Assembly: GCA_020632215.1 (NCBI GenBank)
Contig: JACKFZ010000001.1
Location: 83,444-120,683, forward strand
Direction: 5' to 3'
Source: Candidatus Nomurabacteria bacterium
GTDB lineage: Bacteria > Patescibacteriota > Minisyncoccia > Phycocordibacterales > JAACPR01
Length of the DNA stretch: 37,240 nt
The notes beneath the pieces were generated by a model. The model was not told where the DNA came from. It searched no databases and saw only the letters and a program-made list of their open reading frames with translations. The translations under genes and the position numbers were made by a program. Of this stretch, positions 10,561 to 11,083 are shown piece by piece (positions within the stretch are counted from its first letter, which is position 1; the number at the start of each line of letters is the position of its first letter).

Positions 10561-11083
10561 GTTCGAAATACGAAAAACGAAATTCGAAACAAGCATTAAA
10601 TTTCAATAAATAAATTATAAACAAATAGTGAAATTTATATTTGTTTAACATTAAAGCCAGGCATTATATTTATTAGTAATGTCAAAAATTTATGATTTAG
10701 AGGAAAGAACCAGAGGATTTGCATTATCTGTCAGAGATTTAATTCATAATTTAGAGAAAACCCAGGCGAATTTGGAGTATTCAAGGCAGTTAATAAGGTC
10801 TTCAGCTTCGATTGGTGCAAATTATATAGAAGCCAACGAGTCTCTTGGTAAGAAAGATTTTTTGATGAGACTGAGGATTTCCAGAAAAGAAGCCAAGGAA
10901 AGTTCGTATTGGCTTAGTTTATTGGAAATAGGACCACATTTAGAAGATAAAGTATCCAATTTGAAAAAAGAATCAATCGAGCTTATGAACATAATGGCCT
11001 CAATCATAAGAAAGTGTCAATAGAGCCTATTTATTGGGTAGAATTTAGAATTTGTTTCGTATTTCGATTTTCGTATTTCGTGC
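10561..11083 (+). mobile_element. Four-helix-bundle gene cassette bounded by heptamer-periodic inverted repeats
   Basis: 10564-10591 (cgaaata cgaaaaa cgaaatt cgaaaca) pairs with 11053-11080 at 26/28 positions. The cassette starts immediately after the rmuC stop. Confidence 0.8.
10679..11023 (+). CDS. Four helix bundle protein (TIGR02436 / 23S rRNA IVP-like family)
   Basis: DLEERT...FA, QLIRSSASIGANYIEA, DF...LRISRKEAKESSYWL and EL..I..SII motifs. Confidence 0.92.
   Translation: MSKIYDLEERTRGFALSVRDLIHNLEKTQANLEYSRQLIRSSASIGANYIEANESLGKKDFLMRLRISRKEAKESSYWLSLLEIGPHLEDKVSNLKKESIELMNIMASIIRKCQ

Follow-up and report, generated by a model that had tools for sequence, protein, structure and literature searches.

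A four-helix-bundle gene between inverted heptamer arms at the rmuC-rplU junction, and its relatives across bacterial phyla

The 37,240-nt stretch of Candidatus Nomurabacteria DNA analyzed here (GenBank assembly GCA_020632215.1, contig JACKFZ010000001.1, positions 83,444 to 120,683; hereafter the window) carries a 527-bp cassette (10559-11085) between the host genes rmuC and rplU. In this cassette, a gene for a 114-aa four-helix-bundle protein is enclosed by inverted arms, each consisting of four heptamers and a terminal AAACAA unit. The explanation toward which the evidence leans, if by a modest measure, is the lineage-specific insertion of a promoter-poor, hitchhiking cassette of the intervening sequence (IVS) type, i.e. 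a PF05635 gene set in four-heptamer + AAACAA inverted arms. The cassette belongs to a family that is spread over bacterial phyla, lies co-oriented in very short gaps of one transcription unit and spawns gene-less miniatures. The window element is new as a non-rRNA variant of the S23p-bearing intervening sequence, a kind of element that is already known. To our knowledge, however, the cross-phylum pattern (a gene family tied to 4+1 arms, operon-gap rules and miniatures) has not been described so far.

The cassette and its junction

The insertion becomes apparent when the junction is compared with that of related genomes. For this comparison, 31 metagenomic loci encoding RmuC relatives (38-81% identical) were used. 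In the approximately 18 loci that span the junction (RmuC 46-81% identical; including L111, L087, L084, L086, L088, L092, L095, L102, L103, L105 and L106), rplU follows directly after rmuC, and the wider order is yqeY(-) rmuC(+) rplU(+) recR(-) wherever the contigs reach that far. The initial annotation had proposed this comparison and had considered that the gene might be stably syntenic in relatives without arms; instead, the relatives keep the two genes adjacent, and none that reaches the junction has a four-helix-bundle gene there. In the closest relatives (RmuC 59-81% identical) the rmuC-rplU spacer is short. A TTGCAA-N17-TA(C/G)AAT promoter is located 2-22 nt past the rmuC stop in four of the five closest (L111, L087, L084 and L086; RmuC 67-81%), and L088 (RmuC 59%) has a spacer of about 13 nt without a TTGCAA-type promoter motif. 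Because the relatives keep yqeY-rmuC-rplU-recR without the cassette, the latter is a lineage-specific gain, placed exactly between the rmuC stop and the -35 box. Such a presence/absence polymorphism at an otherwise conserved site is what is found for transposons and MITEs (miniature inverted-repeat transposable elements). In the rmuC-rplU spacer of L097 (1384-1491; RmuC 46% identical) an unrelated heptamer hairpin of the AATGACC / GGGCATT type was observed, which would be an independent insertion into the same kind of site.

The boundaries of the cassette are tight (Table 1). The initial annotation had the element begin at the rmuC stop and end shortly before the rplU promoter, and this is indeed the case: the left arm overlaps the TAA stop codon of rmuC (10558-10560) by 2 nt, while a gap of 10 nt separates the end of the right arm (11085) from the promoter-like site TTGCAA-16-TAGAAT before rplU. 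It had also placed the gene outside any rRNA gene, and no rRNA gene is present in the window. In the same way, the reported lack of a transposase, reverse transcriptase (RT) or target duplication was borne out: transposase, integrase and RT domains are missing from the approximately 40 window open reading frames (ORFs) in Pfam scans, and no direct repeat flanks the arms in the window or in 34 related loci.

Table 1. Coordinates of the cassette, its host genes and other heptamer-armed elements in the window
Feature	Position	Strand	Remarks
rmuC, upstream host gene	9490..10560	+	PF02646 RmuC, E=6e-53
Left arm AAGTTCG AAATACG AAAAACG AAATTCG AAACAAG	10559..10593	+	Four heptamers + terminal AAACAA unit
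Leader, 85 nt, atypically long	10594..10678	+	About 88% identical to leader of gene-less copy 3194-3352
TATTTATT, left copy of 8-bp direct repeat bracketing ORF module	10667..10674	+	Partner 11028-11035
114-aa four-helix-bundle protein	10679..11023	+	PF05635 / TIGR02436 (S23p / 23S-rRNA-IVS protein, Avd-like)
Inner part of right inverted repeat, with second TATTTATT and TAGAATTTAGAA	11028..11050	+	Pairs with 10594-10615
Right arm TTTGTTT CGTATTT CGATTTT CGTATTT CGTGCTT	11051..11085	+	
rplU promoter-like site TTGCAA-16-TAGAAT	11096..11123	+	Host sequence outside cassette; kept at empty junction of relatives
rplU (ribosomal protein L21), downstream host gene	11135..11512	+	PF00829, E=1e-34
Gene-less miniature of same element	3194..3352	+	Starts 7 nt past murF stop; leader + hairpin region common to full copy, no ORF
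Arms-only heptamer hairpin, other sequence type: AAATAGT x4, 11-nt loop, CTATTTA x4	21667..21756	-	Over stop codon of M23 peptidase gene

The heptamers of the window arms share the consensus AAATNCG, with four units per arm in addition to the AAACAA. The heptamer pattern TTTCGNNTTTCGNNTTTCG has seven matches in the window versus 0.09 expected, and in the whole window only two inverted repeats of at least 26/28 are found within 700 nt. The heptamer arms (10559-10590 / 11054-11085) are complementary at 28 of 32 positions, and the inverted repeat extends further to 57 nt (44/57). The 28-bp arms pairing at 26/28, as claimed by the initial annotation, could be recovered at 10564-10591 / 11053-11080; at 10561-10588 / 11056-11083, where it had placed them, the match is 24/28. 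Its perfect 10-bp leader hairpin was confirmed: TAAACAAATA (10618-10627) and TATTTGTTTA (10638-10647) are exact reverse complements separated by a 10-nt loop. Furthermore, the leader runs in heptamer phase from 10594 to 10626, with the degenerate units AAATTTC AATAAAT AAATTAT AAACAAA. These units look like a decayed second left arm, nested or duplicated. Duplicated arms are also present in L010 and L075.

The ORF itself is assigned with confidence to the four-helix-bundle proteins, as the initial annotation had suggested. Both PF05635 (23S_rRNA_IVP; E=4e-14, 53.1 bits) and TIGR02436 ('four helix bundle protein'; E=2e-19, 69.7 bits) match above their curated cut-offs (33.8 and 24, respectively). 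The AlphaFold 2 monomer model (pLDDT 95.4) contains four helices in an up-down bundle like that of BT_0352 and Xcc0516. These two proteins are also the best Foldseek matches (2RLD for BT_0352, TM 0.78-0.82; 2GSC for Xcc0516, TM ~0.8), followed by Avd (4DWL and 8UB7, TM ~0.7), the protein of diversity-generating retroelements (DGRs). The relationship to 2RLD is detected by phmmer as well (E=4e-13), and the sequence identity amounts to 29-32% with BT_0352 versus 13-14% with Avd. The structures 2RLD and 2GSC comprise five chains each and Avd is a pentamer; by analogy, the window protein is expected to form a basic pentameric barrel as well. In the DGR ribonucleoprotein, Avd binds an RNA stem-loop (bioRxiv 10.1101/2023.10.23.563531). 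More than 8000 relatives of the window protein are present in the databases, the closest non-self match being only 65-68% identical. No defense-system model of PADLOC matches the protein, and a review of the HEPN superfamily makes no mention of the PF05635 family. In phage records just two weak partial matches were obtained, and there is thus no sign of a phage vector.

Related cassettes and miniatures

A profile scan of GTDB genomes yielded a set of 80 homologous loci with 52-62% identity from more than ten phyla (Desulfobacterota, Planctomycetota, Patescibacteria, Verrucomicrobiota, Bacteroidota, Chloroflexota, Omnitrophota and others). When the window is counted in, heptamer runs matching AA...C. 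are found on both flanks in 71 of the 81 loci. Exactly four units make up the run in 50/79 left arms and in 51/79 right arms, after which AAACAA(A/T) follows. For both arms the family consensus reads AAATnCG AAAnnCG AAAnTCG AAATnCG AAACAAA TTCnAA, and it is retained in the high-GC Planctomycetes and the low-GC Patescibacteria alike. The gapped inverted-repeat score has a median of 34 for the cassettes versus 17 for 317 control ORFs of the same loci. Chance or an artifact as the origin of the arms was ruled out by the motif counts, the inverted-repeat scores and the run-length statistics. The initial annotation had called the window cassette the protein-coding member of a heptamer-armed family, which agrees with the heptamer runs on either side of a homologous gene in these 71 loci and with the existence of gene-less relatives. 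Its emphasis on a location outside rRNA has to be corrected, however: an Rfam scan of 33 related loci did not find rRNA beside any cassette, and a location outside rRNA is the norm for related cassettes rather than the exception. In Rfam 15, only tRNAs and noise were obtained for the cassette, the miniature and the 33 related loci, at gathering as well as permissive thresholds.

The placement of the cassettes follows strict rules. They are co-oriented with both neighbors in 56 loci and opposed to both in four (binomial p=4.5e-13). On the upstream side, a median of 6 nt separates the stop codon from the arm, which overlaps the stop in 9 of 31 loci; on the downstream side, the next start codon follows the right arm at a median distance of 13 nt. 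From arm to arm, canonical cassettes are 460-500 nt long. In these, AAACAAA is followed after 5 nt by the start codon (TTCGAATGACC), which falls within the extended inverted repeat, and the 3' arm often contains the complement GGTCAT. In the window copy this canonical start codon has been lost: the in-arm ATG has decayed, the stretch from arm to ATG measures 85 nt (10594-10678) versus about 5 nt in canonical copies, and the protein begins some 8-12 residues later. The window copy is thus a derived form of the cassette.

The pairwise protein identity is about 63% regardless of the host phylum (65.2% within the same phylum versus 62.8% between different phyla). Since it is nearly equal within and between phyla, horizontal movement is indicated. 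Arm type and protein clade are significantly associated, but the effect is tiny (64.1% versus 61.8% identity) and therefore says little about co-evolution. One locus from Parcubacteria (L081, ~2890-3400) has arms that are near-identical to those of the window, including the variable positions (33/34 in the left arm), with a protein that is only 58% identical and with different neighbors. In this comparison, either the arms evolve far more slowly than the ORF or they are exchanged between cassettes.

Gene-less miniatures are widespread. They are 120-180 nt long and have the same arms, often with an ATG/GGTCAT remnant; their folding energies range from -24 to -64 kcal/mol. They share loci with cassettes in Deltaproteobacteria, Phycisphaerae, Berkelbacteria, Kaiserbacteria and Paceibacterota. 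The window contains such a copy behind murF (Table 1). Its left arm reads AAATTCG AAGTACG AAATACG AAATCCG AAGCAAA and its right arm TTTGTTT CGGATTT CGATATT CGGATTT, with three CG units rather than four, and it folds as a single long hairpin (-35 kcal/mol). A single copy of TATTTATT is present at the junction, versus the two that bracket the ORF in the full copy. This fits an origin by deletion between the 8-bp repeats, followed by spread or duplication. With two copies in the window, of which one is gene-less, and with its terminal inverted repeats, the element has the multiple, partly non-autonomous copies of a transposon or MITE. When the leader hairpins of both copies are compared (3241-3275 and 10606-10647), the 3' half in the miniature shows two T-to-C changes, which give A.C mismatches on the plus strand but would give G.U pairs in a minus-strand transcript; these are too few data to interpret. 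An exact search with the conserved 26-mer of the leader had no match in GTDB genomes or JGI metagenomes. Three of the four Logan contigs on record with an identical protein were examined, and all three start 69 nt before the ATG, inside the stretch common to both copies. These breaks in the leader match the behavior of assemblers at repeats.

A further hairpin of the window, with heptamers of a different type (AAATAGT), consists of arms only. It runs over the stop codon of an M23 peptidase gene, and the next ATG (21661) follows 6 nt beyond its end. A four-helix-bundle gene matching this hairpin is not present in the window.

More distant members of the protein family were found on plasmids. 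Eleven plasmid PF05635 genes, 30-40% identical to the window protein, were examined, and most of them have the same layout with other heptamers: AATTCAA x4 / TTTTGAA x4 in Nostoc flagelliforme, AATTCGC x4 / GCGAATT x4 in N. punctiforme, ATGAAGG-type arms in Chlorohelix, AATCCCC/AATCGTA in Planktothrix and TTAGGAA-type arms in Monoglobus. Complex arrays, or arrays without clear inversion, are seen in Bernardetia, Treponema and Anabaena, and in Chondrinema no convincing heptamer array was found at the gene. The plasmid copies are located between co-oriented operon genes; examples (L124, L125, L123, L119 and L122) are hsdS/hsdR, helicase/N6-methylase, RND adaptor/permease, and cas2/cas1 or a place beside cas1. 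Cassettes of this family split operons, including cas and restriction-modification operons, which matters for annotation. The cas-adjacent cassettes may explain why a '23S rRNA IVP' has been listed as CRISPR-linked (PMC10910872).

Expression, pairing and competing explanations

No internal promoter was detected in the cassette at the scan threshold. In the absence of a convincing promoter of its own, the cassette would be transcribed by read-through, in this case from rmuC. Within such a transcript, pairing of the arms would give a long duplex with interruptions, of about 32-57 bp. RNase III would then cut the arm duplex, as it does with the homologous stem of the 23S rRNA IVS, and the cassette RNA would be freed from the host message. 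The gene would be 'looped out' in the sense of the initial annotation if the arms pair and are cleaved in this manner. The protein, presumably a pentamer, would bind the heptamer array with about one 7-nt unit per protomer (4-5 units for 5 protomers), thereby controlling its own translation or processing, and it may also take part in the spread of the cassette. Such an RNA-level life is favored by the lack of room for a promoter, the co-orientation, the start codon that is buried in the arm duplex and the RNase III excision of the rRNA-borne relatives.

The predicted fold is in line with arm pairing. For the 536-nt cassette RNA, the terminal arm stem is present in both the minimum free energy and the centroid structures (z=-5.65). 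Across 32 loci the outer 35 pairs are 85% paired, and in-register pairing reaches 73% versus 55% and 47% when the arms are slid by one. The covariation of the arms consists chiefly of the switch from G-C to U-A by which the arm types are defined. As the 7-nt period and the count of four to five units stay constant while the heptamer sequence changes, and the gene remains the same, it is probably the protein, and not only RNase III, that reads the heptamer array. One unit per protomer would be the simplest geometry.

From this, a broader proposal can be put forward tentatively. Together with phased arrays of four or five heptamers, the PF05635 pentamers may constitute one unrecognized protein-repeat system, in which each protomer would read one heptamer, as TRAP reads triplets. 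Its promoter-less cassettes would be found across phyla, at operon stop/start boundaries and in rRNA genes, and their decay would give rise to short tandemly repeated repetitive (STRR)-type repeats, the Xanthomonas GGGAATC repeats, the Geobacter elements and the 23S rRNA IVS. The constancy of period, count and placement despite a varying sequence makes several points testable, namely the binding of the array by the pentamer, the release by RNase III and a role of the protein in moving or maintaining the miniatures.

Several observations weigh against the cassette as a read-through passenger that is excised from RNA. The window copy is atypical, with its long leader and an ATG outside the stem. 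Transcription of rmuC may terminate before the cassette, and a weak, sub-threshold TTGTTT-18-TATATT in the leader could act as an internal promoter, whose transcript would be without the left arm. The ORF of the Coxiella IVS is seemingly not translated. The variable heptamer positions (two or three per unit) pair in only about 40% of loci, with only the CGAAA core being conserved, and contrary to what is expected for a selected RNA stem, there is no bias of G:U over A:C among the arm mismatches (57 versus 49). Moreover, the two arms differ in the variants found at given positions, with AAGCACG in unit 2 on the left and AATATCG in unit 3 on the right, and this asymmetry looks like that of distinct protein-binding ends. 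Finally, the excision of a read-through cassette gives no account of how new copies arise. Selection purely for an RNA stem was considered, and it is unsupported in view of the mismatch counts. Since pairing at the variable positions is not maintained and a G:U bias is lacking, selection on the arms seems to concern the repeated sequence motifs no less than the pairing.

For the origin of new copies, the main rival is a mechanism at the DNA level that acts in trans. The cassette would in this case be a transposable element with terminal inverted repeats built from iterated binding sites. These would be recognized by a recombinase in trans or by the PF05635 protein as a DNA-binding accessory, while the gene-less copies would be MITEs and the RNA pairing would be incidental. 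We regard this explanation as rather unlikely, although it has to be taken seriously. It accounts for the conservation of the arm sequence (CGAAA every 7 nt) regardless of host GC content and without a G:U bias, for the asymmetric ends, and for miniatures in many phyla whose heptamers match those of the resident cassette. The absence of the insertion from relatives and the protein identity that is irrespective of host phylum, which implies horizontal spread, are equally in its favor. However, a target-site duplication is lacking, a transposase, integrase or RT was not found in the window, and PF05635 has no known catalytic motif. The co-orientation and the exact stop-to-start placement would also be unexpected for such an element, barring strong selection after insertion.

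It is improbable that the cassette has lost its mobility and serves the host as an operon element. Its hairpins would then act like the repetitive extragenic palindromic (REP) sequences and bacterial interspersed mosaic elements (BIMEs) or like Correia elements, as 3'-end stabilizers, processing sites or insulators, and the four-helix-bundle protein would be a dedicated RNA-binding regulator. The close relatives without a cassette at the same junction, as well as the patchy cross-phylum distribution with little host signal, are at odds with such a role. Cassettes also occur inside rRNA and in cas2/cas1 and hsdS/hsdR gaps, which looks opportunistic rather than regulatory. What speaks for it is the placement right after stop codons and between co-oriented genes, the stable hairpin fold of the miniatures and the Xanthomonas GGGAATC repeats, which have the same placement and four-unit preference and are mostly transcribed (PMC4692102). 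A DGR remnant, i.e. an orphan Avd gene after the loss of the RT, is very improbable: although the fold is Avd-like (4DWL and 8UB7) and no accessory domain is found more often near DGR reverse transcriptases than PF05635 (PMC10053308), the window contains no RT and no template or variable repeat, rmuC and rplU directly adjoin the gene, whose product is closer to BT_0352 than to Avd in identity, and the arm architecture is common to hundreds of stand-alone copies in operon gaps.

Window context and relation to known systems

According to Pfam, the approximately 40 ORFs of the window are housekeeping genes of a small low-GC genome, together with a HicA-type pair and a Schlafen-helicase/MazG/NYN cluster. 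In the former (5223-5773, minus strand), an 80-aa HicA-toxin-like gene precedes one of 103 aa with NikA-like/ribbon-helix-helix similarity; this is probably a toxin-antitoxin pair. The latter (27746-30524, minus strand) encodes a helicase of 534 aa that is Schlafen-group-3-like, together with MazG-like (115 aa) and NYN-domain (220 aa) proteins, and possibly represents a defense or nucleotide-housekeeping island. At 20627-21436, some 800 bp are without an ORF of at least 40 aa and contain a perfect 22-bp tandem duplication (20966-21009) and several short AT-rich repeats. ORFs without a Pfam match overlap on both strands at 8083-8734, between tRNA-Glu (7951-8023) and yqeY, and no Rfam match was obtained there.

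Short inverted-repeat elements in transcription units that form hairpins in mRNA are well known from the Correia/NEMIS elements of Neisseria, the enterobacterial REP/BIME sequences and the enterobacterial repetitive intergenic consensus (ERIC) elements. Correia elements are RNase III substrates, and REPs have a dedicated protein partner, RAYT. The cassettes differ from these in several respects: their arms consist of heptamers in exact phase, the gene in the full-length form looks non-enzymatic rather than being a transposase, there is no TA or other target duplication, and they are spread across phyla.

Avd shares with the window protein a homologous four-helix-bundle fold, and it is a basic pentameric barrel that binds structured RNA. 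The window cassette, however, is without RT, template repeat and variable gene, and the two proteins have a very low identity. The present finding may also show the role of the stand-alone relatives of Avd.

A second group of relevant elements are the genome-wide heptamer repeats: GGGAATC in Xanthomonas and GGGGA(C/T)T in Nostoc (PMC4692102), the cyanobacterial STRR sequences and the repeats of Geobacter metallireducens (PMC2700814). Like the cassette arms, they have a 7-nt unit and a four-unit preference, often form convergent inverted pairs, and are located between aligned ORFs, near or over the upstream stop codon. The Xanthomonas repeats in particular lie between aligned ORFs, close to or overlapping the upstream stop, and are mostly transcribed; in Xcc0516, a member of PF05635 with the pentamer structure 2GSC, the start codon is overlapped by a 4x GGGAATC array (PMC4692102 and its supplement). 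In G. metallireducens, families of four and of five tandem heptanucleotides were described, with no function assigned (PMC2700814). So far, heptamer repeats with a four-unit preference have been explained case by case, by G-quadruplexes, regulator sites or polymerase slippage, and in the cited papers no connection to a four-helix-bundle gene is drawn. The authors of PMC4692102 ascribed the four-unit rule to G-quadruplex formation. In contrast, the window arms are AT-rich and without G-tracts and cannot form a G-quadruplex, yet they obey the same rule. In the open-access literature, where absence is no proof of novelty, no published link between the PF05635/TIGR02436 gene family and heptamer arms was found.

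The closest known system is the 23S rRNA IVS with an S23p/PF05635 ORF, as found in Leptospira, Coxiella burnetii, Brucella and Haemophilus. It encodes the same protein family, its terminal repeats form a stem of about 28 bp around the ORF, and it is without a transposase and has long been suspected to be mobile (PMC4990558). The likeness is greatest for the Coxiella IVS, where the terminal stem measures 28 bp, tandem GACAGAT heptamers precede the S23p ORF and excision by RNase III has been proven (PMC4990558); with 428-444 nt it is also of the same size class as the canonical cassettes. Of the features that mark an IVS, the window cassette has the terminal inverted repeats enclosing an S23p-family ORF and lacks the insertion into an rRNA helix: it is located between protein-coding genes, at a stop/start boundary, with the heptamer AAATNCG. 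Excision by RNase III was demonstrated for the rRNA copies, whereas for the window cassette it is predicted by analogy. No published IVS description was found that mentions the 4+1 rule, the co-orientation rule or gene-less miniatures. Structures of the S23p/IVS family have been solved since 2006 with no function assigned, and the 23S rRNA IVS has been called 'possibly mobile' since 1993 with no mechanism. The pattern described here ties these intervening sequences to the unexplained heptamer repeats of bacteria.

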